DNA from: a virus
Virus record (IMG/VR): IMGVR_UViG_3300005253_002057
Coordinates: 24,158-88,157 of that record
Direction: 5' to 3' (one strand)
Length of the DNA stretch: 64,000 bases
Within the stretch, counting starts at the first letter, position 1; each line of letters begins with the position of its first letter. Position numbers and translations under genes: made by a program. Positions 10,734 through 30,341 of the stretch are shown here, in pieces. The notes beneath the pieces were generated by a model, which made no database searches, was not told where the DNA came from, and was given only the letters and a program-made list of their open reading frames with translations.

Positions 10734-10774
10734 TAATGACCAAGGTTTACCATTGTCGCAGTTTCTCATATAAT
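10734..10774 (+). promoter_or_regulatory. promoter of capsid gene with conserved upstream box
   Basis: TTTACC(10746-51)-17 bp-TATAAT(10769-74); TAATGACCAAGGTTTA(10734-49) is repeated exactly at 20732-47. Confidence 0.65.
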
Positions 10775-10832
10775 CAGGGTGAGTTTAAGTGTGCAAGACA
10801 CTAATCTGGCTCAGAAAGTGAGGAACAGAACT

Positions 10833-11039
10833 ATGGAGATGGTAGGAGCGCTGATTGGCGTAGTTATAGCGATGGTAGTGGGAGTAGCCTTGCTTCCAGT
10901 CATTGTGAACACTATAGCCACCCTTAATACCGAGACCACAGATGCCTCGGTAATTTCCTTGGCGGGACTTCTTCCTATAATCCTGATTGCGATCGTGATT
11001 ATGGGAGCTGTGGCTTTCGTCGCCGGCGGTCTGGGCTAG
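10833..11039 (+). CDS. putative major capsid protein, spindle-shaped virus (fusellovirus VP1-like) two-helix type
   Basis: ALIGVVIAMVVGVALLPVIVNTIATL-loop-LAGLLPIILIAIVIMGAV; own promoter, GAGG RBS, more G/C-ending codons, structured 3' region. Confidence 0.75.
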   Translation: MEMVGALIGVVIAMVVGVALLPVIVNTIATLNTETTDASVISLAGLLPIILIAIVIMGAVAFVAGGLG

Positions 11040-11177: not shown

Positions 11178-11201
11178 GAATATGTCTTACAGGTTTTCCC
11201 T

Positions 11202-11426
11202 ATGTCAATAAGAATGTCTGCTAGAGGAAGTGCTTGGATAGAAAAGCAGCTTCTTCGAGAAGGACCAGGAACAGTTCCAGAACTGGTCGCTGCATTTATA
11301 GTCACCTCCAAGAATCCTATAGATTCTGTTGAAGATATACAGGTTGAGCTAACTGCGCTTGACCCTGACTTGGTTGAACGTTCCTTTATAGCCCTGTCAC
11401 AGCAGGGAATGGTACAGGTGACTTAG
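11202..11426 (+). CDS. small permuted winged-helix-like protein
   Basis: N-term IRMSARG, C-term VERSFIALSQQGMVQV. Confidence 0.55.
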   Translation: MSIRMSARGSAWIEKQLLREGPGTVPELVAAFIVTSKNPIDSVEDIQVELTALDPDLVERSFIALSQQGMVQVT

Positions 11427-11427
11427 C

Positions 11428-14340
11428 ATGTTTAATATTGAAGAAGAACAAGAAGAAGAAAAAATCTGGGTTCTTAGTAAGAGATCTGATCAGAGAAAGA
11501 AAGACAAAAAGGCAAGTAAAGCTGCAGTAAGGGCTAGAAGAGGCGAAAGAAGAGAAAAGAGACTAAGTCTTAAGAAGGAGAAGAAGAAGAAAAAGTCTAC
11601 TGCTATTCAAAGGCTTAGGGGTAAAGGGCCAAAGATAAGTTCCACTCAGATAGTAGCTGAGAAAGCCTCTACTAGGGCTACTGCTCCTCCTTCTCCTGCT
11701 ACAGCTAGTGCTAGGCCTAAGCGAGGTGTAGTAGCAAGGGAGACACAGGCTCAGTTTAAGGCTTTTCAGGCACGAGAACAATTAAAAGCGGCCCCAGCTC
11801 TTTTAGCTGCTTTTAATAAAAAGGTTGCGGACCAGAGGGCAGCTTCAGCTAAGAAGCGAGAACAAGCAGCTAAGAAGCAAGCACAAGCAGCCCTAGTAGT
11901 TAAACTTCGAGATCAAAAGAGAATAGATGATAAGAAGGCTAGAAGTACTAGGTTTACGGCTCCAGCCATTACTGGCTCTACAACCTTTGAAGACGACGCA
12001 CCTGATACTGGACCCGCTTTTGCTAGAGCAGCTACCGCTAAAAGAGGAAAAGTCGCAGGATTGGCTTCACTAAGTCTTGCTGCTGCTACTAGTACACTAG
12101 CTACAACTAGGCCAACCACTGTAGCACCTAGAGATTTTAGGGATGTAAAACCTAGAGTTACTAGACCACCAGAGACTGAACGTTTTAGAGATGAAAAGGG
12201 ACAAACAGTAATAGACTTTGCTATATCCAGATCACTAGGTAGATTTACTAAACCTAGGCCACGATCTATTACAAGAGTTGCTAGTAAAGGAGTTGTTAGT
12301 AAAGGAGTTGTTAGTACAGGAGAAAAAATAAGGAGAAGAGCTGTAGCTATATTCAGACCTAGTGACGAAGGTAGAGGTAGACAAGATCTAGGTACTGGTA
12401 GAGGGACTAGGTTCTTTACCAAGAGAGCTATTGATCTACGGCCTGATTTTGAAGAAAGCGGACTTAGCCCAAGGCAAGGAAGATTTGTGGCCCGAGGACT
12501 AGGAGAAGCAACTAAAAGGGCAAAAGAAGTAGCCCTTACAACTCGCAGAGTTGGAACCACTTCAGAGGATATTAGACAAATTAGACTACGTGTAGGAAGG
12601 ACTCTTGGAAAAGCAACAGAAATAACTGATGCTAACCGAGCAGCAATAGAACGAGGGGAAATAGAATTTTTAACTCCTGTACCTAGCACTTTTAAGAGAG
12701 CACTAATAGCTGCTGAGGTTGGTAGCCTAATACTTCCTGGAGGTGTAGTTGCTAGGCCTGCAGGCTTTGTACTTAAAACAGTAGCAAGACCAGTAATAAG
12801 TTTTGCTGCTCCTAAAGTGGCTAGACTTGCTACACCTGTAGTTACTAGAACCACTGGTTTACTAGCTAGAGGATTGGCTAGGGAAAGAGTTATAACTGGG
12901 GGAGTAAGAAGTACTAGAGGACTGTTTCAGTCAGCAGCTCAGAGGGCAAGAGAGCTAGGTTCTTCTACCATAAGAGTAACATCCCCAGTAGCTACAAGAA
13001 CAGCAGCCGTAGCTTCAAGAACTACAGCTGCTGCAGGTAGAGCAGCCACTTTAGCAGCCAAGCCTGTTAGAGCAACTGGAGAAGGACTATTTAGTGTTGT
13101 TAGAGCTACACCTAGAGTAGCTAGAACAGCAGGACAAACTGTAAAAACTCTAGCAAGAGGGGCAGATGAGGGAGTAAGAATTAGTGCTAAAGCCTCTCGT
13201 CAGTTAGCCCAAACTGCCCAGCTTCAGGCTCTAGCAGCTAAACAAGGTGGTAGTGTAGTAAGAGTAGCTACTAGAAATCCATTTGCTGCATTTGGTAGAG
13301 GAGTAGCAGGCGCTACTAAGCTAGCTGCTAAGTCTACAGCAAGAAAAGCAGCCTCTCCAGGTAGACGTTTAGCTGCTCCAGCAGCTAAGGTAATTAAAGG
13401 AGCTAAAACAGGAGCAAGAGTTGGTACAAAGGTAGTTAAACCTGTAGCAAAGCCTGTATTACGAGGATCTGGTAGACTACTTAGAAGTCCAGTAGGCTTA
13501 GTAGCTGGGGGGCTAGGTGCAGTAGTAGGAGGAGGTTTAATACTACAAGGACTTAAAGGTGCTCCCCTTGCTCCAGCTCAGCAAGCCCCAGCCCCAGCTG
13601 CGCCAGCTGCTCCTCAAGATACTAGAAGACCCCAGAGACAGCAGCAACAGCAGGCTGCACAAGCTGTACAAGCTGCTCCAGCCCCAGCTAGAGGACCTGC
13701 TAGGGTTACTACAGTTACTCCTGTTACTGCGCCTAGTACAGTAGTAATAGATGAAGGGGCTACATCAGCCCCAAGTAGAACCCCTGTACCTATAACTACT
13801 ACTCCTGGTAAGATAGCTCAGACTATAGCGGTGCCTACTATAGGTCCTGATGGTCAACCTATTATAGACCCTATTACTGGGGAAGTAGTTACTACTGTAG
13901 TGGATATAGTAGATGTTCCTCTTGTTGAAGGTGAGCCTGATGTAAGTCCTTTACCTGCTATAGTCCCACTAGTAGCAGCTGCTGCAGGTATAGCAACTGG
14001 TCTTCTTTCAAGAGGCAGAGGTGGAGGAAGCTCTAGTCAATCATTCTTTGGTGGAAGTAGTTCTTTTATAGGGCCAACTATATTTAGAACAGCTGAGGGA
14101 CAGACTGGAATAAGAATAGTGAAGGATGGTAAAGGCACTATAACACTAGAAGTAGAGAGAGTTCCAGTTAAGAGATTTACCATTTTAGGTAGACCTTTAG
14201 TAAAGAGACCTACCAGAATCTTAGGAGCAGCAGTACAAAGTAAAGCAATAGCTTCTGCTGGTCAATCACTGCTCAATCCTCCAGTTGTAGGAAGTACAAC
14301 TGTACTGGCTAAAAGAGCTTTACAAGGAAGGCTTAGATAG
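11428..14340 (+). CDS. large, very basic Ala/Arg/Lys-rich low-complexity protein (possible virion core protein)
   Basis: 970-aa ORF between the two capsid-like genes; poly-K N-terminus, amphipathic A/R/K/T repeats, hydrophobic GLVAGGLGAVVGGGLIL, P/Q/A linker. Confidence 0.7.
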   Translation: MFNIEEEQEEEKIWVLSKRSDQRKKDKKASKAAVRARRGERREKRLSLKKEKKKKKSTAIQRLRGKGPKISSTQIVAEKASTRATAPPSPATASARPKRGVVARETQAQFKAFQAREQLKAAPALLAAFNKKVADQRAASAKKREQAAKKQAQAALVVKLRDQKRIDDKKARSTRFTAPAITGSTTFEDDAPDTGPAFARAATAKRGKVAGLASLSLAAATSTLATTRPTTVAPRDFRDVKPRVTRPPETERFRDEKGQTVIDFAISRSLGRFTKPRPRSITRVASKGVVSKGVVSTGEKIRRRAVAIFRPSDEGRGRQDLGTGRGTRFFTKRAIDLRPDFEESGLSPRQGRFVARGLGEATKRAKEVALTTRRVGTTSEDIRQIRLRVGRTLGKATEITDANRAAIERGEIEFLTPVPSTFKRALIAAEVGSLILPGGVVARPAGFVLKTVARPVISFAAPKVARLATPVVTRTTGLLARGLARERVITGGVRSTRGLFQSAAQRARELGSSTIRVTSPVATRTAAVASRTTAAAGRAATLAAKPVRATGEGLFSVVRATPRVARTAGQTVKTLARGADEGVRISAKASRQLAQTAQLQALAAKQGGSVVRVATRNPFAAFGRGVAGATKLAAKSTARKAASPGRRLAAPAAKVIKGAKTGARVGTKVVKPVAKPVLRGSGRLLRSPVGLVAGGLGAVVGGGLILQGLKGAPLAPAQQAPAPAAPAAPQDTRRPQRQQQQQAAQAVQAAPAPARGPARVTTVTPVTAPSTVVIDEGATSAPSRTPVPITTTPGKIAQTIAVPTIGPDGQPIIDPITGEVVTTVVDIVDVPLVEGEPDVSPLPAIVPLVAAAAGIATGLLSRGRGGGSSSQSFFGGSSSFIGPTIFRTAEGQTGIRIVKDGKGTITLEVERVPVKRFTILGRPLVKRPTRILGAAVQSKAIASAGQSLLNPPVVGSTTVLAKRALQGRLR

Positions 14341-14341: not shown

Positions 14342-14563
14342 TTGGGAATTGTAAAAACCTTCGGAGCCTTTATAGGCACAGCCATAACACTAGTTTTGCT
14401 CTGGGAGTTTCTTCCAGTTATTCAGACTTTGTTTGATGGAGTTTCTGATAACTCAGTTCTGAGTGATAGGGAACTAGGGACTATAAGTCTACTACCTTTA
14501 ATAATAGTAATAATAATACTGCTGGGCTCTGCAGCTATAATAAGATCCAAACTAAAGAGATGA
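14342..14563 (+). CDS. minor capsid protein paralogue (VP3-like)
   Basis: FIGTAITLVLLWEFLPVIQTL...ISLLPLIIVIIILLGSA aligns by eye with 10833-11039 (LPVI and LLP motifs). Confidence 0.65.
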   Translation: MGIVKTFGAFIGTAITLVLLWEFLPVIQTLFDGVSDNSVLSDRELGTISLLPLIIVIIILLGSAAIIRSKLKR

Positions 14564-14676
14564 AAGTCCTTGCCTTGTTAAAAACTCATTATATAGGTCT
14601 AAGTAGCTCCTTCTCCATAGTTGGAGCTTTTATGATCTGGTGGGCCTCAAATGGTTGGGACTGTCCCTTAGGTTAA
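14560..14676 (+). CDS. small membrane peptide (38 aa, not in ORF track)
   Basis: ATGA coupling; MKVLALLKTHYIGLSSSFSIVGAFMIWWASNGWDCPLG. Confidence 0.45.
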   Translation: MKVLALLKTHYIGLSSSFSIVGAFMIWWASNGWDCPLG

Positions 14677-14687
14677 GGAGGAAATAT

Positions 14688-15770
14688 ATGCCTTACTCTC
14701 ATTCTTGGATAAAGCAGTTAGGACTTTCTATTGGGCTTGCTATAGTATTTATAGCAGGCTTTGTATATCTTACAGCCCCTCCCTGTGCCTTTGGAGCAGC
14801 TGAGTGTCCTGTAGGTTCAACTTCTGTATTCTCTGAGAATATAGGAATACAAGGTGGAACTACTTTTACTACAACTATAGATAGTACTCCTACAGGAGAT
14901 AGAACATATACTATACCTGCTACAGGAGCAAATGATACTTTTGCCCTACTTGGTACAAGTAATGTGTTTTCTGGTAGTGGGGCTCTACTAGATAAGTTTG
15001 TCAACTCTGGAGATGGTATAACTATTACAGTTGAGAATACTAATGGAACTCCAACTGGATTTAGTGTAGTAGATATAATTGGCCCTTCAAGCACCGCAAA
15101 CTATGAACTTCTTACTATATCTAATGATGGGGTAGATGAATCAGGAGATGTGCTTAAGATCACAGGTAATGGAGTCGTAGATGTTACCAGTGCTCAATTT
15201 AGCGTAAGTACCGCAGTAGGGGGATCTAGTGCTGGTGCAACTATAGCTATTCCAGCTAGTGGAACCGGAGATGCTGTAACCCTATTTAGTCAGGGCGCAG
15301 CAGATGGATCTGCTAATAATATGGGATATATAATGGGTTATGATGGTGGTGCAGGATATTTGAAGTTAGCAAGTACAGATACTGATGGAGCCTCTACTGA
15401 CGCAGATATCTGGAGAGTTCTAGATAGTCAGCTATCTATAGATGCTAACACTACTTGGGACGAGAATGTCTTTGACAGCTATAGAGATGCAGAACTATTA
15501 GCCGCTTCTATTAGTCCTTCAGCCCCTTCTTATCAGTTTGAAAATGGAAAAGTTTTAAGAGGAAGAGATGTTCTTATAGAAGTAGGTATTCTTAAGTCTT
15601 ATGATGATGAATTCGTAGGTTATAATGACCAGCGGATGGCAGCTTTGCTGGCAGGAGGCATATATCAATCAGCTGAACTTATAGAACGAAACATGGTGCT
15701 AATAGAAGAGTTAATAAATAAAGTAAATCTTTTAGAGAATGAGATCTGTGAACTTAAAGAAGCTTGTTAA
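14688..15770 (+). CDS. secreted/anchored beta-rich fibre-like virion protein with C-terminal coiled coil
   Basis: GGAGG RBS; N-terminal TM/signal; G/T/S/D-rich body; C-terminus LIEELINKVNLLENEICELK resembles fibre chaperone coils. Confidence 0.6.
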   Translation: MPYSHSWIKQLGLSIGLAIVFIAGFVYLTAPPCAFGAAECPVGSTSVFSENIGIQGGTTFTTTIDSTPTGDRTYTIPATGANDTFALLGTSNVFSGSGALLDKFVNSGDGITITVENTNGTPTGFSVVDIIGPSSTANYELLTISNDGVDESGDVLKITGNGVVDVTSAQFSVSTAVGGSSAGATIAIPASGTGDAVTLFSQGAADGSANNMGYIMGYDGGAGYLKLASTDTDGASTDADIWRVLDSQLSIDANTTWDENVFDSYRDAELLAASISPSAPSYQFENGKVLRGRDVLIEVGILKSYDDEFVGYNDQRMAALLAGGIYQSAELIERNMVLIEELINKVNLLENEICELKEAC

Positions 15771-18261
15771 CAAGCGATATCCTATTGCCTGGGCTATAGT
15801 ATTAGTTTTTGCTTTATTATTTATAAATGTCTTTGATTCTATAAGTAATAAAGCTTGTAAGACTTATGCTAATCACGTAGTAACTGACTTCTGTAGACAA
15901 ACTGACATATTTGTTACTAAGGTAAGTCCTGGAAATCTTAGTAACTATCCAGTAGCAGTTCCTATAGATCTTAGAGCCTATGTAGATGGAAATACTCTCT
16001 CTGAATTTGGCTGGGACATTCTTCCTGTACAAGGGGCTGAAGTTCCAGCTATGATACAAGATATAGACCCTGGAGATGTAGAGAGTATCTTTTGGATTCA
16101 GGGAGACTTATTAGGCAGTGAAGCCACTGTTACCTTTAATGTCTATACAGGTAATGCAGATTTTAAGCGAGATCAGGGAATTCTCTTACATCAAGCTTCT
16201 GGCGCCGACTCTTTATCAGTACTTGCCGATGCAGTCTTTAATATAACAGACAATATTGAAGTTATAGTACATGCAGATACTGATACACCAGATCAGAATG
16301 GAATTCTACTAGATAAGTTAAATGGAAATAATGGTTACCAGTTAGAAGTAACTACTACAGGAGCTGGTAGTATACTTGCCACAGTAGGGAGTGGTGCAGC
16401 TACTGATACTTTAGAAGTAGCTTGGACTGGTGATGAAACTATAAGAATGACCTTTGATGCAGGGGCTGTTAACGATTTAGATATATCATTTCTTAATGCT
16501 GCTGGAGTATGGGTATCTCAAGGAGATACAAATACAACCTTTGCTAGCTTAGGAACACATGGTAATGATCTTCTCATAGGCACTGGCTTTGATGGAGTTA
16601 TACAAGAAGTTGAAATAAGAGATGATGTAGGTTTAGGCTCCTATGCTAAAGTAGCCCAGTGGTCTTTTGATGCTAGAGATATAACTGAGACTCAAACTGG
16701 AACTGATGCAAATAGTTGGACTTATATAGGAACTGTAGAAGAACTTATATCAACGCACGACGCTACTTATACCTTAATAAATGACCAGTCAGGACTTAGC
16801 GTAGCTATAGGAACTGCTCCTTTAGTAAGTGGAGCCAGTTCGAGTATACAAGGAGTTGCTTTCGCACTCTCAGCCTTAGATTCTATAGCTGGACTAGCTG
16901 GGGCTACTAATGCAGTAGAAGCTTGGCAAAGAAATACTAATACATGGTATATAGGAGTAGTATACGATGTTGCTCCTTTTTTCTCAATACTAGAGTGGAA
17001 TGGAGATGCTCTATCAGTAAAGTCTACTGCTGGAGTAGGACTCATAACTGGACAAGGAAATGCTATATCTTCCTGGCCGTCTAGAACTGTAGTAAGTGAT
17101 AGAATTATAGCAATAGGGCATAACACAGCGCCCTTTCTAACATTATTAAGATGGGATGACAGTGCTCAAGCTATAATAGGGGAAGATACTCCAGCTTTAG
17201 CCCCTCAGGGTAATACTTTAGATCTTGTCCACTGGACTAATCCTAGAGTGAGCACTGTAACAATAGCTGTAGCCAACGTAGTTGATGTAGAATTTTACTC
17301 CTATTCAGAACGAGAATCCAATCTTAGCTTTAAAGGAAGTCCTACAATACCTATCCCAGAGCTAACTGCAATTACTTCTATATCCATACCTCAGGAATTT
17401 AGAAAGAGAACAGTAAATACTAATTTAGATGTAGAGGACACAAGCGTATTTATAACTCAAGCCCAGGCTTTTGGTGCTGATGTTCTTAGTTGGTTATGGA
17501 TAGATAGCTCTAACGCTGACGAAGATGTAGCAGATGACGACTTTAGCCTTACTGATGACACTACTGATATAATAGTCTGGAATGATCGAGAGGGTGATGC
17601 TTCTGAGCACTTAATACTTATTGCTTATTCTTCAGGCAGTGAGTTAAGAGTACTAAGAACTAGTCATGAAAAAGGTAGTATATTATCTCAAGCCACTATA
17701 AACTCTGCTGGAACTAGTACAGCGGTAGATAGCTGGAGTACAGAAGTTGTGGCTAGCAGACTAATTGCCTCTACTTATATTACTACAGCTAGAGTAGACT
17801 TACTAACATGGAATGAGCAAGCTTTAGGAACAGTAGCTACCTTAGGTTTAGCCACCTCTCCAACTCATCTTACTTCTTGGAAAGAACCTGCAGACACTGT
17901 AGTAGCTGCAGTAGAAAGTCAAATATTAGCCATAAGCTGTGGCTCATGTAATGGAGTGTCTATAGTAAGAGCTTCAGTATCACTGGAGGAAATAATAGTA
18001 AGAGAAGAAGGGCTAGACTTTATAGAAACCTTTGCAGCTCAAGTAGGTTTAGACTCAGTGGCTGCAGCTGGTATAGTAATACTCCTTTCTTTTGTAGGTA
18101 TATATATAATAGAAGGAAATCTAATAGGTTCAGGGCTAGTTACGTCTGGCCTGCTAATATACTTTTTAGTAACAGGACTTATAGGTTTCTGGGTTGCTAT
18201 ACCTATAGTATTTCTAGGACTATTTGCACTGTATAGTAGATATAGAGGAGCCTGGGAATAG
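15739..18261 (+). CDS. membrane-anchored surface/spike protein (LamG-like plus beta-repeat region)
   Basis: N-terminal signal; LLIGTGFDGVIQEVEI LamG-like strand; three C-terminal TM helices. Confidence 0.65.
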   Translation: MRSVNLKKLVNKRYPIAWAIVLVFALLFINVFDSISNKACKTYANHVVTDFCRQTDIFVTKVSPGNLSNYPVAVPIDLRAYVDGNTLSEFGWDILPVQGAEVPAMIQDIDPGDVESIFWIQGDLLGSEATVTFNVYTGNADFKRDQGILLHQASGADSLSVLADAVFNITDNIEVIVHADTDTPDQNGILLDKLNGNNGYQLEVTTTGAGSILATVGSGAATDTLEVAWTGDETIRMTFDAGAVNDLDISFLNAAGVWVSQGDTNTTFASLGTHGNDLLIGTGFDGVIQEVEIRDDVGLGSYAKVAQWSFDARDITETQTGTDANSWTYIGTVEELISTHDATYTLINDQSGLSVAIGTAPLVSGASSSIQGVAFALSALDSIAGLAGATNAVEAWQRNTNTWYIGVVYDVAPFFSILEWNGDALSVKSTAGVGLITGQGNAISSWPSRTVVSDRIIAIGHNTAPFLTLLRWDDSAQAIIGEDTPALAPQGNTLDLVHWTNPRVSTVTIAVANVVDVEFYSYSERESNLSFKGSPTIPIPELTAITSISIPQEFRKRTVNTNLDVEDTSVFITQAQAFGADVLSWLWIDSSNADEDVADDDFSLTDDTTDIIVWNDREGDASEHLILIAYSSGSELRVLRTSHEKGSILSQATINSAGTSTAVDSWSTEVVASRLIASTYITTARVDLLTWNEQALGTVATLGLATSPTHLTSWKEPADTVVAAVESQILAISCGSCNGVSIVRASVSLEEIIVREEGLDFIETFAAQVGLDSVAAAGIVILLSFVGIYIIEGNLIGSGLVTSGLLIYFLVTGLIGFWVAIPIVFLGLFALYSRYRGAWE

Positions 18262-18265
18262 TAAT

Positions 18266-18595
18266 ATGAGAGCTGTAATAATATTTACATTACTTTTTTA
18301 CTCCTTGGTTGGCTTTATAATAACTAAGCTTCCTACTCCTGACCAAGCAGAGGGCTTCAATATAATAACTGAAGCTGACATAGAAGAAACTGTAGTAGTA
18401 AAAGCTTCTGAGCAGCCTAGCCCAGCTACTGCCATAGTAGTGGCAGGACTAAATCTCTTTGCAGTAATAAAGACTATATATCTATTACTTAGCTTTCAAT
18501 TAAGTGGAGTTCCATTTCTTATAAATCTATTGTTCTTAGTCCCAGCAAATATAACAGTCTATATGGTAGCAGTCCAGTTGGTTAGAGGGGGCTAG
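18266..18595 (+). CDS. membrane protein of virion module
   Basis: Three hydrophobic segments; lies between two spike-like genes. Confidence 0.65.
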   Translation: MRAVIIFTLLFYSLVGFIITKLPTPDQAEGFNIITEADIEETVVVKASEQPSPATAIVVAGLNLFAVIKTIYLLLSFQLSGVPFLINLLFLVPANITVYMVAVQLVRGG

Positions 18596-20804: not shown

Positions 20805-21347
20805 ATGATTTTAACTAATAATCCAGCTGCTATACAACTACTCCTTGTGATAAGTGTACTCTTTACTGCAGGATTAATTCTAGCCTTATACTTTGGCTTT
20901 AGAAGATGGATAGCAGCTAGAATGTTAGTATGGGTAATACACCCAGATAGAAGACTAAGCAAACATATGGTTAGACCAGAATCTGACGGTAATATAAGAA
21001 TACCTAAGATAGGGTCTAGATTTCTTTTCACTCCTGCTGATGTATTCTACTCCAGTCTTCCTTTAGTAGGGGAACCAATTCCAGCAATAATGTGTCACAT
21101 AGATAAACCTGAGGCGCTGGATATAATAGGGCTAGTTCCCAAAGAAGGTATAACTTCTACTGAGTTATCAAGTGCTTTCGATAATAGAATGTTAGAGCAG
21201 TGGGTAAGAGCTACTAAAGAGCCAGGATTGGCTAGATTAAGGTCTACTTTGGTAATAGGATTAGCAGCCGTGCTGCTTGCAGTACTAGGTTCTACATACT
21301 TTATTGCTACCTCAGTATTAGGTCCTATAAGCCTACTGGAAAGATAA
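20805..21347 (+). CDS. two-TM membrane protein (assembly operon)
   Basis: N- and C-terminal TM helices; first gene after the promoter; co-operonic with ATPase. Confidence 0.7.
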   Translation: MILTNNPAAIQLLLVISVLFTAGLILALYFGFRRWIAARMLVWVIHPDRRLSKHMVRPESDGNIRIPKIGSRFLFTPADVFYSSLPLVGEPIPAIMCHIDKPEALDIIGLVPKEGITSTELSSAFDNRMLEQWVRATKEPGLARLRSTLVIGLAAVLLAVLGSTYFIATSVLGPISLLER

Positions 21348-21350: not shown

Positions 21351-21830
21351 ATGGAATTCTTTTCTAAGCAAAAGACTAAGTCATCTAATAATGGAGCCAC
21401 TCCTAGTGAGAACTCTTCTAGCAATAATAAAGTAGAAGCTGGGGATAATAACTTTAGAAGCGCCTTTTGGCAGAGTCTAGCTGGACAGGCACCTACTACA
21501 GAAGGGGGCCAAGGTTTAGCCTCTCTATTAGGTATAGGAGGTCTTGGCGGAGACGATAATCAAAATGCTTTAGAGTTATTTGACATTCCTACAGACTTTG
21601 GTGATCTTCATGAGCTTAGAAGACTAATAGCAAAGTCTGATATTCCAGCTGAGTTGGTACAACCACTAATGACTTTACTAGGATTGGCTGAAAGATTTGC
21701 ATCCAAGCTAGTTCCAAGCCTAGTAGGTTGGTACTTGGTAGGTAGAATAGGAAAGAATAGACTTGGACGGGAAGAGTTTATCAGAGCAACTCAACGGCAA
21801 GCCTTAGTACAGAAGGACGATGATGACTAA
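21351..21830 (+). CDS. hypothetical protein (assembly operon)
   Basis: Abuts the ATPase gene. Confidence 0.65.
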   Translation: MEFFSKQKTKSSNNGATPSENSSSNNKVEAGDNNFRSAFWQSLAGQAPTTEGGQGLASLLGIGGLGGDDNQNALELFDIPTDFGDLHELRRLIAKSDIPAELVQPLMTLLGLAERFASKLVPSLVGWYLVGRIGKNRLGREEFIRATQRQALVQKDDDD

Positions 21831-22367
21831 GTGGCTATAACAGTGATAACTGGCCCTATGGGAAGTGGAAAGACTACTCTTATGACTGCAGTAGGAGTAC
21901 TGGCCCATGAACTAGATGGAGTTAGGATATTCTGTAACTATCGCTTGACTGGTATAGAACATACCTTTTTTAGACCTACTGAGTTTGCCGACTTGATGGA
22001 GGCTGAGGAATTAAATAATTGCATAGTTCTATTAGACGAGGCATATCTTCTTATGGATTCCCGTACTTCTGGTGCTAGGATAAATAGATTATTTTCCGCT
22101 TTTACTTACCAAGCAAGAAAAAGAGGAGTAGACTTACTAGTAGTTACTCATCATACAGATCATATAGATAAGCGAATAAGAAGAGCCATGTCTTATAGAT
22201 GGAGGCCTAGATTTAATCCAACTACTCATGTAATAACTGTATACTCAAAGGCTGAAGAAGTAGGGCATAGGTCTAGATTCAAGATACAAGCAGATAAGTT
22301 CTGGCCTTACTTTGACACTAATGAGATTCCTATTATAAGCAAGCAGTTAAAGAGGGTAGTATTTTAA
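21831..22367 (+). CDS. Zot/inovirus pI-like morphogenesis ATPase (no TM)
   Basis: ITGPMGSGKT, IFCNY, LLDEAYLLMDSR, QARKRGVDLLVVTH, IDKRIR. Confidence 0.85.
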   Translation: MAITVITGPMGSGKTTLMTAVGVLAHELDGVRIFCNYRLTGIEHTFFRPTEFADLMEAEELNNCIVLLDEAYLLMDSRTSGARINRLFSAFTYQARKRGVDLLVVTHHTDHIDKRIRRAMSYRWRPRFNPTTHVITVYSKAEEVGHRSRFKIQADKFWPYFDTNEIPIISKQLKRVVF

Positions 22368-22541: not shown

Positions 22542-23240
22542 GTGGTGGACTCCCCTACTAAGGAAAAGTCCCTAGATGAAATTAGGACTAACCTAGCAAA
22601 GTCCTATGTTGAGAACAGTGGTGGCTTGGTCGCTGTATATAATAGGGAAGAAATAACATTTCTATTAAGTATTCTAACTAGAGCTCTAGAAGGTAGTACT
22701 TTTCCAGGTCAGCAAAGAATAGTTAATGAAACTAGACAACTTCTAAGTAAATGGGACTGGAGCAAGCTTCCAGCTGAACTAGAGGGTAACTTAAAGCTTT
22801 ACGTCTTTAATAGACTTAAGTTAGAAAAATCAAAGACCTACACTTTTAGAAGAGTAGAGGCTTTAATATTTGCTGACCAGAATAAGGAGAAGGGTTTGAA
22901 TCAAGAAAATCAAGGAAGTAGTAGCCTAGAACAGTACGCAGAGTCTCAAGATGAAGACTCAGAAGTAATAGATTTGCAGAAAGCGGATGACGAAGAGTTC
23001 ACCTACTATGTAGTTAGGGCTGAGGAATTCTCCCGCTTTGAGCTAGCTACTATTTTAATTTCGATGGGAAATCAGTCGGAAGAAGATCTACAAGTAAGAC
23101 TTCACGAAGAATTACTTATAGTATCTGATGACCCTGACTTAGAAGATCATCAAGAAGAAAGTCTTGCTGTCTATATACTTGACCTAGAAAAGGATGGAGG
23201 TATTTTAGATAAGAAGGCTCTAGATGAACAAAAAGACTAG
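22542..23240 (+). CDS. acidic hypothetical protein
   Basis: 232-aa ORF with genome-typical codon usage. Confidence 0.6.
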   Translation: MVDSPTKEKSLDEIRTNLAKSYVENSGGLVAVYNREEITFLLSILTRALEGSTFPGQQRIVNETRQLLSKWDWSKLPAELEGNLKLYVFNRLKLEKSKTYTFRRVEALIFADQNKEKGLNQENQGSSSLEQYAESQDEDSEVIDLQKADDEEFTYYVVRAEEFSRFELATILISMGNQSEEDLQVRLHEELLIVSDDPDLEDHQEESLAVYILDLEKDGGILDKKALDEQKD

Positions 23241-23246
23241 TCTGTA

Positions 23247-23561
23247 ATGAATAAGGTTCAATATATCTTATCTCTATGGTATTATATACTAGGAGATATA
23301 ACTAAAGAAATAGTAGAGTTGCTAAATTCAATAGCTATACACTATGCTCCTGAGCCCCCTCTAGATATATCTGACAAAGGTAATCTTAATCTATTCGACT
23401 TATTACTACTAGGCACTTACGAAGGAGGCAAGATAATGGCTGGGCTTCTTAGAAAAGGCCTAGTAGCATATAGAAAAGGTATGATAATAGGGGGAAAAGC
23501 CTTAATAGCATACTCTAAAAAGAAACGCAGGGAGAAAAAGCAAAGACAGGGAGTGGGATGA
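23247..23561 (+). CDS. hypothetical protein with basic C-terminus (internal start 23436 with GGAGG possible)
   Basis: ORF track; RBS before MAGLLRKG. Confidence 0.5.
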   Translation: MNKVQYILSLWYYILGDITKEIVELLNSIAIHYAPEPPLDISDKGNLNLFDLLLLGTYEGGKIMAGLLRKGLVAYRKGMIIGGKALIAYSKKKRREKKQRQGVG

Positions 23562-23752
23562 CTAAGAAAGCAGCTACTCTAGGGGACATAAAAAAGGCGG
23601 CTAACTCCTATCATAAAGGGGTAAAGGAGGCTAGCAAAAGCTTTCATGGTACCTATGGAGGGGGCATAAAAGACTTAACTAAGCATCTAGGTAGAAAAAA
23701 GACTTCTATAAAGGGAAGAAAGGTAAGGGCTAGAAACAGTCTAAAATTCTAG
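23558..23752 (+). CDS. small basic protein
   Basis: Lys-rich 64 aa; ATGA coupling. Confidence 0.6.
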   Translation: MTKKAATLGDIKKAANSYHKGVKEASKSFHGTYGGGIKDLTKHLGRKKTSIKGRKVRARNSLKF

Positions 23753-23769
23753 CGCTTAATTAATGCTTA

Positions 23770-24012
23770 ATGAGTGAAGAATCTGAGACTGAGGATGAAA
23801 ACTCTGTAGAATCTGTAGTATTGAGGTTTGCAGGTTTTATAGCTGGTTTATTCATATTCCTTCATTTCTTACAGAGAATGGAGACTAACCAGCTTTTTCT
23901 TTTTCTAGCCTTTATAGGGCTGGGCCTAGGACTGCATGTAGGATTTACTGCTTGGCAAGGATTTGGGGCAGTAAGAAAAAAGAGGGATGAGGCTAAGGAG
24001 CGTTATAAATGA
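23770..24012 (+). CDS. two-TM membrane protein
   Basis: Acidic N-terminus, two TMs, basic C-terminus. Confidence 0.65.
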   Translation: MSEESETEDENSVESVVLRFAGFIAGLFIFLHFLQRMETNQLFLFLAFIGLGLGLHVGFTAWQGFGAVRKKRDEAKERYK

Positions 24013-27000
24013 AGAATCAAATGGCTTTAGTACTTATAATAATAGCAGTAGCTGTAGGACTGGTATCTTTAGGTGGGGGAATTACATCACTGGGTGTAGT
24101 TGCCCCAATCTCTTCTACAGGAGGTACAGCTCCTACACTTAGTATAGCCGCTTGTCCTGATGGAGAAACTTATACCTTTGATTCAGGTACTAGCACCTGG
24201 ACTTGTGGAAATGCTGGACATACTATACAAGATGAGGCTGTAAGTCTAGCTACAGAACCAACTCTAAACTTCACTGGAGCTGGTGTAGTCTGTGCGGATA
24301 ATCCAGGTAATACTAGAACAGACTGTACTATAACAGGAGTAGCAGGTTCAGGAGTACAGCTAGACTTAGGTAATGATGATGTAATAGAATCCACAGGCAT
24401 TACAGAAATAAATGTAGATAATGACACTAATTCTATATTTACAGAAACTCCAGCAGATCAACTATTAATAGATGCTAGTCTTAATTGGCCTATATCAGAT
24501 GACGTAAGCTGTACAGACTGTCTAAATGCCACAGAGATAGAAGATATCTATGTTCTTATTGTTGGAGACACAGTAACAGGGAATATAGACTTCGATGATG
24601 GAGTAGGGGAAAGTCCTCGTGTTCTCTTTTCCCCTCAAACAGGGACAGTCTGGGATATCTACGCAGAAGACGCAACAGATGACTTACAGATAGAAGTTAC
24701 TACTGCTGTTGCTGAAGGTCTTGATATTGTAAACACTGGTGCAGGTATTGTAGTTTTAAGTCTTGATTCTTTAGCCACAGGTGGGGCTTCTGAATGTGTA
24801 GAGGCAGACACTAATGGAGTATTAGCTCTAGCTGGTTCTGCTTGTGCATCAGGAGGTGGAGATTCAATAGAAGTAGAGGACGGAGATAATACTGGTACCT
24901 TTTCTACTATTGATACTACAGCTAGATTTGAAGACTCAGCAGATATTAACTTTTCTTTAGCAGATGGTGGGCCTGGAGGTCCTGACGATATCACTGGAAC
25001 TGTTAGGGCAAATGCAGTAGCCCTAGCTACAGATACTACTGGTGCCTTTGTTGCTACAGTAGCAGATTCTGGAAACACTAATATAACAGTAGCAGGCTCA
25101 GGAGCTGAGAATGCTGCTGTTACTTTAGATGTTATAGACGTTAACTGTACTAACTGTCTTGATGCCACTGAGATTGCAGATATCTATGTTCTAGTTGCCG
25201 GAGATGTTATGACAGGCAACCTAGATATGGATGATGGAACCACAGATTCTCCTAGAATTCTCTTCACTGTTCAAACAGGTACAGTTTGGGATATCTATGC
25301 TGAAGACACAAGTGATGATCTTCAAATAGAAGTAACTACTGGAGTAGCTGAGAATCTAGATATAGTAAATACTGGTGCTGGAACTGTAGTTCTTACATTG
25401 GACTCACTTGCTACTGGTGGGGCTTCAGAGTGTGTTCAAACTGATACAAATGGAGTCTTCTCTAATACAGGAGGAGCCTGTGGTGGGGGCAGTGTTGATC
25501 TTCAAGGAGCTTACGATAACGAAGTTAATCCAGCTCTTATTACCCTTGATAATACTATAGGAGGTATTATCTTTGATGGCGATGCTGAGCTTTCTGACCC
25601 CACCTTTACAATTAGAGATGATGGAGGATCTGTAGGAATACTTATAGATAATGATGATGAAGCAGGAAATGAGGCAAGTCCTCCTTTAAGAATAGCAAAC
25701 TCAACAGCAGCTGCTGGAGACACACAGTTTTCTTTTATAGTTACAGCAACAAGTGAGTTGGAGATAAGAGGAGATGATGACGCTGCAGACTTAACGATAG
25801 AAGCTGATGGGGATCTAGATCTGGCGGCCAATTTGACTTGCTCTAGTTGTATAGATCTAGGTGGAGAGTCAGCTGGGGCTTACGTGGCTACTGTAGCTGA
25901 TTCTGGTAATACTAATATTACTGTAGCAGGCTCTGGAGGAGAAACAGCAGCAGTTACTTTGGATGTAATAGGTGTTAACTGTACCGACTGTCTTGGAGCT
26001 ACAGAGATAACTGATATATACGTCTTAGTTGCTGGCGATGTAATGGCTGGTAACTTAGACTTTGATGATGGCACTACAGATTCTCCTAGGGTTCTATTTA
26101 GACCACAAACTGGAACTCTTTGGAATCTTTATGCAGCTGATTCTGATGATGATTTTCAAATTGAAGTAAATACTGCAGTAACAGAAGTAGTTGAGTTAAC
26201 TAATTTAGGCATAGGAGACGTAGACCTAACTCTAGATGGGGATATAAACTGTACAAACTGCATAACTTTAGCCACTGAAACTGTAGGTGCATTCGTAAAT
26301 GATATCACAGGTGGAGATGGAATATCCTCAACTGGTGGAGGTGCAGAAGACTCCACACCTACTATAGCAATAGACCTGACAGATGATGCAGATGGAACTA
26401 GTGCTACAACTGCAGCTGAAAGTGGGCTGGAGTTTCTTACCAGTGAGTTATCTTTACTTAGAGGTTGTTCCAACGGGGAGATACTAAAGTGGACTCTCGG
26501 AACTGAAGACTGGGGTTGTTCAGCAGATAGTACAGGAGGCTCCCCTACCTTTGATACTATAGCTTCAGGTACAAATACCACAGCTACAATGACCATAGAC
26601 GAAGGGGCTGAGATTATTCTAGCAACGGGGGGAATAAATGAAGCTTCTGAAGTTCTTAATACTGTACATAATGACTCAGGTGCTACACTCTTCCAGTGTA
26701 CAGCCGTTTACCTAAACGGGTTTGATATTCCAGCTGACCTTCCAGATGTTTTAATTGCTGATTCTGATGTCTCAGGAGCTGCTATAGGTCTAATATTTTC
26801 TGATGCAGTTACAGGGTCTGACGTTTTAATCGTAGTTTCAGGTCAGATGGATGACCTAGACACAGTAACGGGGGAAGGTTGGACTGTAGGAGATACATTA
26901 TATCTCAATGACTCTGGTACTTCAGCCGATAATGATTGTGGTAACACTTTAACCAATGTGCGCCCTGCCAACACTGATGACATAGTACAGGCTATAGCTA

Positions 27001-28934
27001 AAGTAGAAAGAGTTCATGCTACTAAAGGAAGATTAGAAGTCGTAGGTGCGGGTAGAGGAAATGATGTTCCTAATCTCCCTGACGATCAAGTTTGGGTAGG
27101 TAGTGCAACTAATGTAGCTACAGGAGTAACTGTTACTGACTCAGATGCAGCAACGGAGAAGCTTCAGTACGATCAAGCTACTAATACATTTATTACTGGA
27201 ACTGATGATACTGTACCGAAAGCTGGGGACTTTGCTAATGCAACCGATCTAGATCTTAATGGAGCTATCAATTGCACTGATTGCCTTAATGCTACAGAGA
27301 TTGAAGACATCTACGTTCTTATAGCTGGAGATGTTATTGAAGGCGATCTGGATTTTGATGATGGAGTCACAGACTCTCCCAAGGTACTATTCAGAGTACA
27401 AACTGGTGTAGTTTGGAGCGTCTATGCTGAAGATGGGGCTGATGATCTACAGTTTGAAGTTAACTCAGGTACTGCGGAGACTATAGACTTTATAAATCTT
27501 GGGGCTGGTGTCATAGACATTACTGTAGATGGAACTATTACTGGAACTACTGCAGTAGCTGGACCTAATGTTACTTCGGGAGCAGACCCAGGTCACACTC
27601 ACACTGGAGGTTCTCTAGGTGGCATAGACATATCTGATGATACGAATCTGACTTGTGGAACTAACTGTACCTTAACTGACGACGAGATTTCAGTAGATGA
27701 TGTCTTCGTCTTAACAGCTGGTGATACGATAGCTGGTGATCTATCGTTTGACGATGGGGTAGGTGATACACCAAAGCTTAACTTCACTCCAGCTACAGGC
27801 GATGTTTGGAATATCTATGTTGATGATGCTTCTGGTGATCTGCAGTTCGAAACTAATACAGGTGGGCAAACTAGTTTCGATTTTGTAAATCTTGGACTCG
27901 GTACTATGGCTCTGTTTCTTGATGGGGATATTGATGCTGGGAATCCCAGTGGTGGCAATTCGACTATAAGGTCATCGTCGTTTCTTATTACATCGACATG
28001 GACTAACTTCGATGACCAGGGGGAGATTCGTCTTAGTGAGCCTGATGGAGCTGGCACAGAATACATATCAATACAGGCTCCAGCAACCTTAGCATCCAAT
28101 AGACTGTGTGTTCTTGAGGATGATGCAACTCCTTTTGACCCTTGCGTCTCAGGTGCTGGCGGCGGAGATATAACAGCAGTAGGACCAGGATATTCTTCAG
28201 GAGCAGCCTTTACTGATACAGTAGTTTCTGTAGGTACAGAGATGCTGGTTTGGGAAGGAACAGCTTCTGATGCTAATGAGCTAACAATTAGTGCACCTGC
28301 TAACCCTGCTGTAGATCAAAACTTTGCATTTCCTGACGATCAGCTGGCTGATGACGACTTAATTATTGCTAACGGGGCTGGTACCTTTGAGTACAAGGCT
28401 ACTCCAGACTGCGATGCAACTAATATAAGTAGACTTCAGTATGATACTACTACTAATCTCTTTATCTGTGACACAGATCCAGTAGCCGCAGGAGAGTACG
28501 CAGCCGCATCTATAGATGGAGATGATGTAAATAGTAATATAGCAGGAGCACATCTAACCTTAACAGCAGCAGCTCCTGATACTTTAGATCTAGATGTTGA
28601 AATATTCACTAATACTACGGGAATCTGGTTTGAAGATCCTACAGCTGCTGATGACTTTGAATCTATATGGGTAGTAAATGGATTCGCAGTAACTATAACA
28701 AAGATCTGGTGCGAGTCTGATCAGACTGTAAATATGGATCTACAGATAGATGATGGTACACCAGCAGATGTCAATGGAACAGATCTTGTATGCGATGGAA
28801 CACCTGCATTTGACGAAGCAATGGGCGGAGATGCCACTATGGCTGACGGAGATAGACTAGATCTTGTTATTACATCAGTGTCAGGAACTCCTACTTGGGT
28901 AAGTATTATGTGGACTTATACAAAGGATGACTAG
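24009..28934 (+). CDS. giant acidic repeat fibre/adhesin with signal peptide
   Basis: 1641 aa; N-terminal hydrophobic signal; five copies of the ...YVLxxGDxxxGxxDFDDGxxxSP...WxxYxxDxxxDLQxE unit; D/T/G-rich. Confidence 0.8.
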   Translation: MKNQMALVLIIIAVAVGLVSLGGGITSLGVVAPISSTGGTAPTLSIAACPDGETYTFDSGTSTWTCGNAGHTIQDEAVSLATEPTLNFTGAGVVCADNPGNTRTDCTITGVAGSGVQLDLGNDDVIESTGITEINVDNDTNSIFTETPADQLLIDASLNWPISDDVSCTDCLNATEIEDIYVLIVGDTVTGNIDFDDGVGESPRVLFSPQTGTVWDIYAEDATDDLQIEVTTAVAEGLDIVNTGAGIVVLSLDSLATGGASECVEADTNGVLALAGSACASGGGDSIEVEDGDNTGTFSTIDTTARFEDSADINFSLADGGPGGPDDITGTVRANAVALATDTTGAFVATVADSGNTNITVAGSGAENAAVTLDVIDVNCTNCLDATEIADIYVLVAGDVMTGNLDMDDGTTDSPRILFTVQTGTVWDIYAEDTSDDLQIEVTTGVAENLDIVNTGAGTVVLTLDSLATGGASECVQTDTNGVFSNTGGACGGGSVDLQGAYDNEVNPALITLDNTIGGIIFDGDAELSDPTFTIRDDGGSVGILIDNDDEAGNEASPPLRIANSTAAAGDTQFSFIVTATSELEIRGDDDAADLTIEADGDLDLAANLTCSSCIDLGGESAGAYVATVADSGNTNITVAGSGGETAAVTLDVIGVNCTDCLGATEITDIYVLVAGDVMAGNLDFDDGTTDSPRVLFRPQTGTLWNLYAADSDDDFQIEVNTAVTEVVELTNLGIGDVDLTLDGDINCTNCITLATETVGAFVNDITGGDGISSTGGGAEDSTPTIAIDLTDDADGTSATTAAESGLEFLTSELSLLRGCSNGEILKWTLGTEDWGCSADSTGGSPTFDTIASGTNTTATMTIDEGAEIILATGGINEASEVLNTVHNDSGATLFQCTAVYLNGFDIPADLPDVLIADSDVSGAAIGLIFSDAVTGSDVLIVVSGQMDDLDTVTGEGWTVGDTLYLNDSGTSADNDCGNTLTNVRPANTDDIVQAIAKVERVHATKGRLEVVGAGRGNDVPNLPDDQVWVGSATNVATGVTVTDSDAATEKLQYDQATNTFITGTDDTVPKAGDFANATDLDLNGAINCTDCLNATEIEDIYVLIAGDVIEGDLDFDDGVTDSPKVLFRVQTGVVWSVYAEDGADDLQFEVNSGTAETIDFINLGAGVIDITVDGTITGTTAVAGPNVTSGADPGHTHTGGSLGGIDISDDTNLTCGTNCTLTDDEISVDDVFVLTAGDTIAGDLSFDDGVGDTPKLNFTPATGDVWNIYVDDASGDLQFETNTGGQTSFDFVNLGLGTMALFLDGDIDAGNPSGGNSTIRSSSFLITSTWTNFDDQGEIRLSEPDGAGTEYISIQAPATLASNRLCVLEDDATPFDPCVSGAGGGDITAVGPGYSSGAAFTDTVVSVGTEMLVWEGTASDANELTISAPANPAVDQNFAFPDDQLADDDLIIANGAGTFEYKATPDCDATNISRLQYDTTTNLFICDTDPVAAGEYAAASIDGDDVNSNIAGAHLTLTAAAPDTLDLDVEIFTNTTGIWFEDPTAADDFESIWVVNGFAVTITKIWCESDQTVNMDLQIDDGTPADVNGTDLVCDGTPAFDEAMGGDATMADGDRLDLVITSVSGTPTWVSIMWTYTKDD

Positions 28935-30341
28935 ATGACTAGATTGATTTTACTCGCAATTGCTCTCATTACTCTTGCCTTAACTGCAAATAGTGCTTCT
29001 GCATATGAGTCGATTCAAGCTCAAGCTAAGGTACCAGCTAATATATGTCTCATTAATTGGGAGTGGGCAACAGAGGGAGACCTTTCATTCTGGCGCATTC
29101 CTAATGCTAGCAACGCTTTAGGTACGATTGACCTTCGTTCTAGGCCTCAGTACGAGCAGAAAGGAGGTCCTCCAGAAGGCTACGCTTTGGTATCTTACGA
29201 TACTAGTGGACTATGCGTTGGGCCTACTATGCTCGTATCTCTCGGAAGTAGTCTTGATAGAGGTCTTCGCCCCGATGAGAAGATAGCCCTTGAGATAGGG
29301 ATGGGTTATGAGTTAGGAGCAATCACTTCATTAACAACTAGAGATGCTCTCTGGGAGATGTTTACTACCTTAAGTGATCCAACTGGACTAACTGGACCTA
29401 AGCCCGTTCGGAAGGAGAGCACAGGAGTTGTTCGGCTGATTCTGGGAGGCTATGGCGATATTCACTCTGAATCCTATAAAGATGATCCCATACACGTCGA
29501 TAATATTATTGCAGTATTTCAAGCAGATTATCGACGCCATAAGATTGATGGTATTACATCCTTAACGTCTCTCCAGAAATGGACTGGACATACTATGAAG
29601 TCCATTGAGGAAACCAGTGCATCGAAAGTCCTTCCTCCAGAGTATGTTACTGATGGATCGAAGGATCCTAGTACGACAGCTGGAGATACCTTCGTAGAGG
29701 CAGGAGATACAGATCTTAGTGCTCATACTGCAACAGGACCTAATGGAGGCTTCAGTTGGGATGATACCATAACTGGGGCTGGCGGAATGACTGTCATTGG
29801 CGCCAGCGATGATATTGATTCTGATAGTAATAGTACACAGGCTGCCAGAGCAGAGTCAGATTTATCTACAGATGATATGACGGTGATCTTCGATTGGGTT
29901 GCTGATGGTGGGGGTACAGGTAACTATCAAGGTGCTCTAGCCCGTCATAATAGCGCAAATCGTGAAGCCTATCTCGGGATCTATAAGCTATTCGATGGTT
30001 GGGAAGTCTATAGAATAAGTACAATTGGAGGATACACCCAACTCGGTGCAGATTTAAGTGCTGCTGATGTGCCAGACTCTACCTTACAGCTAAAGGTTGA
30101 TGGCAGTAGTATTGAGCTCTTTAGAGATGGTGTAAGCCAAGGTACGCGTACAGATACGAACATAACAGGCAATCTGAGATCTGGTATTGAAATGTCTGAG
30201 ACCGGATTTACTATGGACAATTTCGAAGCAGTGGATCTTGGGGTCGCTGCGCCTAGAAGAGTAATAAGATTAACTAAACTTTATAACGATTACTTAGAGA
30301 GACACATACAAAGAATCAGGGAACTTATAAAGCCCTCTTAA
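28935..30341 (+). CDS. secreted virion/receptor-binding protein with C-terminal lectin-like beta sandwich
   Basis: Signal peptide ASA-Y; LQLKVDGSSIELFRDG...TDT..SGI...MDNFEA pattern. Confidence 0.65.
   Translation: MTRLILLAIALITLALTANSASAYESIQAQAKVPANICLINWEWATEGDLSFWRIPNASNALGTIDLRSRPQYEQKGGPPEGYALVSYDTSGLCVGPTMLVSLGSSLDRGLRPDEKIALEIGMGYELGAITSLTTRDALWEMFTTLSDPTGLTGPKPVRKESTGVVRLILGGYGDIHSESYKDDPIHVDNIIAVFQADYRRHKIDGITSLTSLQKWTGHTMKSIEETSASKVLPPEYVTDGSKDPSTTAGDTFVEAGDTDLSAHTATGPNGGFSWDDTITGAGGMTVIGASDDIDSDSNSTQAARAESDLSTDDMTVIFDWVADGGGTGNYQGALARHNSANREAYLGIYKLFDGWEVYRISTIGGYTQLGADLSAADVPDSTLQLKVDGSSIELFRDGVSQGTRTDTNITGNLRSGIEMSETGFTMDNFEAVDLGVAAPRRVIRLTKLYNDYLERHIQRIRELIKPS

Follow-up and report, generated by a model that had tools for sequence, protein, structure and literature searches.

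The wyrdviruses of Asgard archaea encode one or two His1-like major capsid proteins (MCPs), an adhesin, a block of membrane proteins and an ATPase that resembles protein I (pI) of filamentous phages and is without a transmembrane (TM) domain (bioRxiv 10.1101/2021.07.29.453957). Genomes of up to 72.6 kb, with two MCPs, structural and enzymatic arms, ThyX, radical SAM and Que genes, have been described for the Itzamnaviridae and Tepeuviridae of ANME-1 (bioRxiv 10.1101/2022.07.04.498658). In bacteria, the IME1 elements of Dehalococcoides and Dehalogenimonas, reported in October 2026, are 21-28 kb long and combine a pI-like ATPase with small hydrophobic proteins of the SSV1-VP1 type (phrog_11172), proteins with signal or TM segments and no tailed-phage genes, and a budding or filamentous double-stranded DNA (dsDNA) virus was proposed; filaments, not lemon-shaped particles, were seen in that study and are not yet linked to the element (bioRxiv 10.64898/2026.09.15.751708). 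The window analyzed here is a stretch of 64,000 nt, comprising bases 24158-88157 of the 88,157-bp IMG/VR record IMGVR_UViG_3300005253_002057 (G000), which is classed as 'linear', and positions are those of the window unless stated otherwise. The region from 10.7 to 30.3 kb of the window is probably the block that encodes virion assembly in a large, linear dsDNA virus without a tail, most likely one of a bacterium.

The block was found to carry, in this order, an MCP candidate, a basic protein of 970 amino acids (aa), a second MCP, giant anchored proteins, a perfect internal promoter, two small genes and the ATPase. This layout is shared with the wyrdviruses, some of which encode ThyX and pPolB and which likewise come from marine sediment. 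Wyrdvirus genomes, however, measure 20 kb or less, have archaeal hosts linked by CRISPR (clustered regularly interspaced short palindromic repeats) and include a TFB gene, whereas the present record reaches at least 88 kb (relatives, 88-110 kb) and its sigma-70 promoters, SPO1-type PolA and large glycan pathway are not wyrdvirus-like. With IME1, the locus shares the neighborhood of a pI-like ATPase and small hydrophobic proteins of the VP1 type as well as the lack of tailed-phage genes, the combination by which that bacterial element is recognized. IME1, compared by description only, differs in being circular or integrated and in encoding a tyrosine recombinase, an SSR resolvase and an archaeal-type primase-helicase; no recombinase was found among the proteins scanned here, a subset of the open reading frames (ORFs). 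The present genome is 4-5 times larger, has linear relatives with terminal inverted repeats (ITRs) and encodes its own PolA as well as nucleotide-modification and glycan genes. The Itzamnaviridae and Tepeuviridae, also compared by description only, are set apart by CRISPR-assigned archaeal hosts and an RNA-primed PolB. The term 'undescribed lineage', used in a preliminary description made from the window's sequence, was therefore too strong, given the module layout of the wyrdviruses and the bacterial IME1 elements.

The MCP candidate of the VP1/His1 family is encoded at 10833-11039 on the plus strand. As had been stated in the preliminary description, this ORF specifies a 68-aa protein with two hydrophobic helices (predicted TM segments at residues 1-33 and 35-68), and the AlphaFold2 model is a two-helix hairpin with helices at residues 2-29 and 38-64 (pLDDT 91.2). 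The promoter attributed to this gene was located as a promoter-like site, TTTACC-17-TATAAT, at 10746-10774 (+), and a Shine-Dalgarno sequence (GAGGA, at about 10820) lies 8 nt upstream of the ATG; neither a structured RNA nor a terminator was found in the 162-nt gap after the gene (z = +2.0). When the protein was compared with Pfam, residues 2-62 were aligned to positions 6-66 of the 73 positions of His1_capsid (PF25665; E 7.6e-4). PHROG matches were obtained to phrog_5402 and phrog_11172 ('virion structural protein'; E ~1e-3), and the latter contains SSV1 VP1 according to the IME1 preprint (bioRxiv 10.64898/2026.09.15.751708).

When the PDB was searched, the single MCP sequence matched SSV19 VP1 (7xdi_A) at E 1.3e-3. 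A profile of 8 sequences matched the same chain at E 2.5e-6, as the sole match up to E 10, and a profile of 47 sequences matched it at E 3.2e-8, with the runner-up only at E 1.3. An E-value that falls as the profile deepens is expected from true homology, not from composition alone. The top match of the AlphaFold2 model in a Foldseek search of the PDB was again 7xdi_A (TM-score 0.78/0.77, root-mean-square deviation 2.0 Å over 65 columns, 31% identity). The Foldseek PDB matches included no pilin, pVIII or holin, so that the capsid candidate did not model as a pilin or holin, the outcome that the preliminary description had singled out as unfavorable. A search of 1.8 billion representatives placed 240 clusters in the MCP family (E<=1e-3), and many of these have C-terminal extensions; PF25665 was matched independently by 11 of the 47 family members. 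In 50,697 phage records, no match to the MCP was obtained by tblastn. Pfam, PHROGs, the PDB profile search and the fold thus agree on the kinship with fusellovirus VP1 and the His1 capsid protein that had been put forward in the preliminary description, and the membership of the 68-aa protein in this family is considered established with high confidence.

The paralogue that had been placed at 14342 was recovered as a second, divergent MCP gene at 14342-14563 (+; 73 aa), the start of which abuts the stop of the 970-aa gene. It shares 30% identity with the coat protein and was aligned to the family profile by hhalign with a probability of 93.4% (E 2.5e-7).

In-frame insertions of 60-85 aa were observed in about 17 genes of the MCP family (P0020, P0030, P0035, P0040, P0041, P0049, P0055, P0074, P0076, P0086, P0092, P0100, P0107, P0124, P0138, P0143 and P0147), with the shared translated motif IRG.LN ... 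GNPELS ... KCVETR. As a rule, the MCP sequence is interrupted in helix 2, after 'YVFVAV', and resumes past the insertion; in P0100, the insertion is found in helix 1. It has the look of a small mobile RNA element, possibly an intron of the group I type, that is translated by read-through, and when the DNA of the insertion-bearing genes was sought, only intact genes were found.

The candidate morphogenesis ATPase, a P-loop protein of the Zot/pI type with 178 aa, is encoded at 21831-22367 (+). Its earlier identification as Zot/pI-like was confirmed by Pfam matches to AAA (E 7.7e-9) and, above the cut-off, to Zot (PF05707; 25.9 bits vs 20.3), and by PHROG matches to phrog_1979, phrog_197 ('Zot-like') and phrog_1675 ('protein I of M13'). 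The best PDB chain for the family profile was 2r2a_A (E 3.4e-6), which is listed as 'uncharacterized protein' and which we take to be the N-terminal domain of a Neisseria Zot protein. No TM segment was found in the 178 aa, so the C-terminal TM domain of inovirus pI has no counterpart here.

The same genes were found in related records. The MCP and the ATPase occur together in G001, an IMG/VR record of 109.6 kb (82% complete), and in G002, of 13.2 kb; the ATPase is also shared by G004 (87.8 kb, 96% complete by CheckV), which was recovered via an MCP-family query (P0049). The ATPase is 42-45% identical in G001, G002 and G004. In G002, two MCP genes are followed by genes for a 759-aa protein, two proteins with signal peptides (335 and 764 aa), TM proteins and the ATPase, an order that mirrors that of the window at 10.8-22.4 kb; two tandem MCP copies were also found on a 9-kb contig (L004). 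G004 (L035-L039) ends in a perfect 96-nt ITR, with one end 112 nt longer, and is therefore a nearly complete linear genome; the ITR suggests protein-primed replication, although G004 also encodes PolA. The large proteins of G004 outside the module include a helicase, a Cas4-like nuclease, a ribonucleotide reductase, a DNA polymerase and a lipoprotein.

Two observations on these relatives were made in passing. The 'provirus' label of G002 (L009) in IMG/VR was rejected as an artifact, because the 48-kb parent contig Ga0209323_10000104 continues with virus-like genes: the flank (L023:13445-19844) codes for proteins rich in Lys and Arg and for a DNA polymerase of family B (YCNTDS), and the entire parent contig is probably viral. 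The ATPases of G001 and G002 (L009:3286-3978 (-) and L014:6704-7372 (-)) contain a Cys-rich insertion of ~50 aa with CxxCxGxG repeats and the look of a DnaJ-type zinc finger, which is missing from the ATPase of the window.

Among characterized virus families, the locus resembles the Fuselloviridae (SSV1, SSV19) in the MCP, by profile and by fold, and in the VP1/VP3-like pair, and by position only in the basic protein gene beside the MCP, as with VP2. Fuselloviruses are unlike it in their 15-24-kb circular genomes, integrase, hyperthermophilic archaeal hosts and DnaA-like B251 ATPase, which is not of the Zot type, and the MCPs are only 31% identical. The Halspiviridae (His1; PF25665) likewise have a hairpin MCP, and the linear His1 genome with ITRs and a protein-primed PolB has its likeness in G004 with ITRs and a phrog_1907 polymerase; His1, however, has a genome of 14.5 kb and a haloarchaeal host, and the Pfam match obtained here lies under the curated cut-off. 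The Inoviridae (Tubulavirales) share the Zot/pI-type ATPase and small hydrophobic coat proteins inserted into the membrane, and inoviruses are extruded without lysis. They differ in their circular single-stranded DNA genomes of 4-11 kb, in a pI with a TM domain and in a pVIII made of a single helix with a signal peptide, whereas the MCP candidate here gave no pVIII match.

The lack of a recognizable terminase, portal or HK97 capsid gene, reported before for the window, was found to hold for the complete record. TerL_ATPase (PF03354), Terminase_6N (PF03237), Terminase_3 (PF04466), Phage_portal (PF04860) and Phage_capsid (PF05065) were absent in six-frame scans of the whole of G000, G001 and G004, in which the control genomes matched, and no Pfam or PHROG match to TerL, portal or HK97 MCP was obtained among the large proteins. 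Neither the 88-kb record nor the near-complete G004 thus carries these genes at the sensitivity of sequence profiles, which very divergent versions may escape.

The host domain was judged from promoters and other signals. In the 88 kb of the record, 7 exact TTGACA-(17 or 18)-TATAAT sites were observed against 0.08 expected, with a maximum of 2 in 400 first-order Markov simulations. One of them (TTGACA-17-TATAAT, 20767-20795 (+)) lies inside the module, 9 nt before the ATG of the gene at 20805, and another (50917-50945 (+)) has an ATG 7 nt past its -10 box; further perfect sites were located at 4949-4978 and 37888-37916 and, in genome positions relative to the window, at -700, -1126 and -13892. 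All seven are co-oriented with the local genes, and six lie in gaps between called genes, the seventh being only inside a spurious antisense ORF. They have common flanks (aacTTGACA ... gRTG-TATAAT), and in five of the seven (20767, 37888, 50917, -700 and -13892) an ATG follows the -10 box after 6-9 nt. This spacing has the geometry of a bacterial leaderless transcript and not that of an archaeal TATA box, which needs about 26 nt before the start, and at the position where such a box would be expected, the spacers are not TATA-like. The site at 20767 is kept in an independently assembled relative with both hexamers and their spacing, within a 68-nt stretch that is 94% identical (~80-84% overall); the conserved alignment begins right at the -35 element. 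The earlier statement on consensus promoters therefore stands for these perfect sites, but not for promoter-like sites overall, which were no more frequent than in shuffles (37 vs 43), as was also true of terminator-like sites. As a separate observation, the sites at -700 (+) and -739 (-) of the window stand back to back where gene orientation flips.

Protein domains and ribosome-binding sites pointed in the same direction. PolA, an OmpR domain, Bac_transf and a lipobox protein, all listed earlier as signs of a bacterial host, were found to be present; Bac_transf (E 4e-42) matched in 9 bacterial control genomes and OmpR-type Trans_reg_C (E 1e-13) in 10, and neither matched in an archaeal control. 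The LuxR domain named with them is also present (GerE, 60186-60344), but it is not evidence for the host, because three archaeal control genomes match as well. AGGAG-type Shine-Dalgarno sequences precede 44% of genes vs 18% of control positions, and AAGGAGG precedes 18% of G001 genes vs 0.2% of control positions. The archaeal host, a trait of the described spindle-shaped viruses, is not indicated here, as judged by the sigma-70 promoters and the domains confined to bacterial controls, and the host is very probably bacterial. Among close homologues of the UDP-sugar dehydrogenase that bear organism names (three proteins only), two are from Anaerolineae and one is from a 'bacterium', which is too thin a basis to name a host; Chloroflexota as the host phylum is a guess and no more, made from these Anaerolineae homologues and the Dehalococcoides precedent.

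According to the main competing explanation, the virus would infect archaea, as a giant relative of the wyrdviruses or of the ANME-1 Itzamnaviridae and Tepeuviridae, and its bacterial-looking signals would be coincidental or acquired. The MCP family, the set of two MCPs, the pI-like ATPase without a TM domain and the wyrdvirus-like module order all agree with it, as do the marine sediment origin of the sample and the ANME-1 spindle viruses of up to 72.6 kb, which carry ThyX, radical SAM, QueCDEF and the split into structural and enzymatic arms. We consider it unlikely, however: the seven perfect sigma-70 sites exceed chance expectation, their -10-to-ATG spacing is wrong for a TATA box and one of them is conserved; Bac_transf and OmpR domains did not occur in the archaeal controls; PolA is of the SPO1 type; and no TFB, PCNA, MCM or Orc1 was found among the Pfam matches of the ~60 proteins scanned.

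Two further explanations concern the nature of the element itself. If the record were a fragment of a phage of conventional, for example tailed, type, the head and packaging genes would lie in the missing ~45% and the hairpin would be an accessory protein of the membrane, for instance a holin, a pilin-like protein or one for superinfection exclusion. The CheckV completeness of 55% would allow this, large phages typically encode PolA, SNF2, Que genes and a protein with collagen repeats, as found here, and a BFVD fold search of the MCP candidate gave matches that include small phage membrane proteins (E>0.5). Against this, G004, with its ITRs and 96% completeness, and the 110-kb G001 lack the TerL, portal and HK97 families, and the hairpin matches only SSV19 VP1 in the PDB, is tandemly duplicated in relatives and heads a module alongside a pI-type ATPase, which makes such a fragment quite improbable. 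That the DNA belongs to a mobile element other than a virus, for instance a plasmid or an element that forms vesicles, with hairpin and ATPase serving secretion or membrane vesicles, appears the least probable of all. In favor of this reading, no virion has been seen, and archaeal plasmids and viruses exchange such modules; opposed to it are the linear relative with ITRs, the extensive set of genes for nucleotide metabolism and DNA modification, the lack of conjugation genes among the matches and the homology to a proven capsid protein.

Several points weigh against a bacterial virus with a VP1/His1-type virion. Described viruses with such an MCP infect archaea in all groups but one (PMC10848233), and ThyX, radical SAM, the Que genes, the two-MCP set and the split between structural and enzymatic arms also occur in ANME-1 spindle viruses. 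With regard to the MCP, the PF25665 scores of 19.8 and 21.4 bits (two scans) are under the curated cut-off of 27, and subthreshold matches were also obtained in the E. coli and Haloferax control genomes, so that hydrophobic bias adds to the score; the Foldseek E-value for 7xdi_A was only 0.09, because a helical hairpin of 68 residues is so short. Perfect sigma-70 sites are few in the relatives (0 in G001, 1 in G004), and a host search with MCP and ATPase alignments against about 185,000 species genomes gave no match; no tRNA was detected in any of the records examined and no Rfam family in the 88 kb of G000. G000 was estimated by CheckV to be 55% complete, and unseen genes therefore exist. The virion, its morphology and non-lytic release are predictions from the genes.

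For a bacterial virus of this kind, the following assembly route can be proposed, with its steps modeled on fuselloviruses, wyrdviruses and inoviruses. The hairpin protein would insert into the cytoplasmic membrane and polymerize around DNA condensed by the basic 970-aa protein, and the ATPase may power DNA loading, delivery or extrusion, in the manner of pI in filamentous phages. The giant anchored proteins would become adhesins at the ends or on the surface of the particle, the viral glycan pathway may decorate these proteins or the envelope, and the particle would leave by budding or extrusion, without lysis. The spindle morphology, membrane extrusion and non-lytic life style of the preliminary description are thus suggested by homology, and as for the shape, a filament or a pleomorphic particle is just as possible. 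It is tentatively proposed, at somewhat less than even confidence, that linear dsDNA viruses of ~90-110 kb in sediment bacteria (possibly Chloroflexota) build lemon-shaped or helical-lattice capsids with a VP1/His1-type hairpin and a pI-type ATPase.

A virion design known only from archaea is probably present in bacteria too, and the virion type would extend to them at 88-110 kb, against a known range under 75 kb, as a large-genome counterpart to the IME1 elements of Dehalococcoides. If the proposed lineage exists, the spindle-virus morphogenesis module spans both prokaryotic domains, having predated their split or crossed between them, and packages genomes several times larger than that of any described spindle virus. 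The result bears on whether this virus group dates to the last universal cellular ancestor, on the reading of a sizeable fraction of the 'non-tailed, unclassifiable' virus contigs from sediment and on how a lattice of 68-residue hairpins scales to 100 kb of DNA.

The remaining genes of the block are all on the plus strand. The MCP candidate is followed by a 74-aa soluble protein (11202-11426) with only a weak winged-helix hint (HTH_9, E 0.0048, below the cut-off), and then by the very basic, low-complexity 970-aa protein (11428-14340; K+R 18%), which has predicted TM segments at residues 687-707 and 838-857 and no family match in Pfam or PHROGs. The position after the MCP is also occupied in G001 (1053 aa) and G002 (759 aa), and by analogy of position with the basic VP2 of SSV1, the 970-aa protein may be a DNA-condensing or internal virion protein. 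Beyond the second MCP, a 376-aa acidic protein (14640-15770), a candidate virion surface protein, has an N-terminal anchor (TM 23-54) and a coiled-coil-like C-terminal tail. It is followed by an 840-aa candidate spike (15739-18261), which is anchored at the N-terminus and has clustered TM helices at the C-terminus, a 123-aa polytopic membrane protein (18224-18595) and a 712-aa candidate spike or adhesin (18596-20734), which combines a signal peptide with a TM cluster at the C-terminus. Between the internal promoter and the ATPase, a 180-aa protein with N- and C-terminal TM helices (20805-21347) and a 159-aa soluble protein without a Pfam family match, directly upstream of the ATPase (21351-21830), are encoded.

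Downstream of the ATPase, four small genes (22542-24012) encode an acidic protein of 232 aa, a protein of 104 aa, a very basic one of 64 aa and one of 80 aa with two TM helices. The next gene, at 24009-28934, encodes a 1641-aa acidic protein, a candidate fiber or adhesin, with an N-terminal anchor (TM 1-32) and at least 5 copies of a ~230-aa repeat (NCTDCL.ATEI.DIYVL.AGD...), as read from the translation. The block ends with a 468-aa secreted protein (28935-30341; signal ...ANSASA/YE), the C-terminal half of which resembles a concanavalin/LamG-type beta-sandwich (ESM Atlas rows, PF06439/Laminin_G_3), a resemblance that serves as a lead only. The five large surface proteins announced earlier (376, 840, 712, 1641 and 468 aa) were all found to have a signal or anchor segment at the N-terminus, and C-terminal TM clusters were found in those of 840 and 712 aa; none of the five gave a family match in Pfam, PHROGs or NCBIfam, and NCBIfam gave nothing for the module proteins.

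Outside the block, the genes of G000 are on the minus strand over the first 23.4 kb and on the plus strand from there on. The sequencing runs that hold most of the stretch all belong to one marine sediment metagenome, probably the source sample, and other runs hold small shares; 'marine sediment metagenome' is as far as the habitat is specified. Directly upstream of the module, an SPO1-type family A DNA polymerase (7983-10712 (+)) combines UDG-like, 3'-5' exonuclease and polymerase domains, and its nearest relatives in the phage collection are those of the Bacillus phages Nachito and SP-10 (23-27% identity). The glycan pathway (39505-50893 (+)) comprises a nucleotide-sugar dehydrogenase, an epimerase, FkbM methyltransferases, a Bac_transf phosphoglycosyl transferase and a Wzy_C-type polymerase/ligase, and it may serve to decorate the virion or the host envelope. 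A 652-aa protein at 51626-53584 gave no Pfam or NCBIfam match.

Further genes were recorded apart from the module. QueC, QueD (PTPS) and GTP cyclohydrolase I were confirmed by Pfam at 1932-2648, 2627-3067 and 5510-6133, and these genes fit a 7-deazaguanine DNA-modification pathway in a non-tailed virus; a proposed QueE and a TGT-fold gene were not confirmed in the scans made. A predicted lipoprotein of 446 aa, unusual in a virus, is encoded at 3064-4404 and carries the lipobox LLTAC and a Septum_form domain (PF13845; E 3.4e-9). Collagen triple-helix repeats (E 1.6e-13) were detected in a protein of 325 aa, the gene of which (L002:11394-12371 (-)) lies in the minus-strand arm, a long way from the morphogenesis module. 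The UDP-N-acetylglucosamine-dehydrogenase-like gene at 54738-56000 has two viral-type relatives that are 82-88% identical, whereas its cellular homologues are 50-55% identical.

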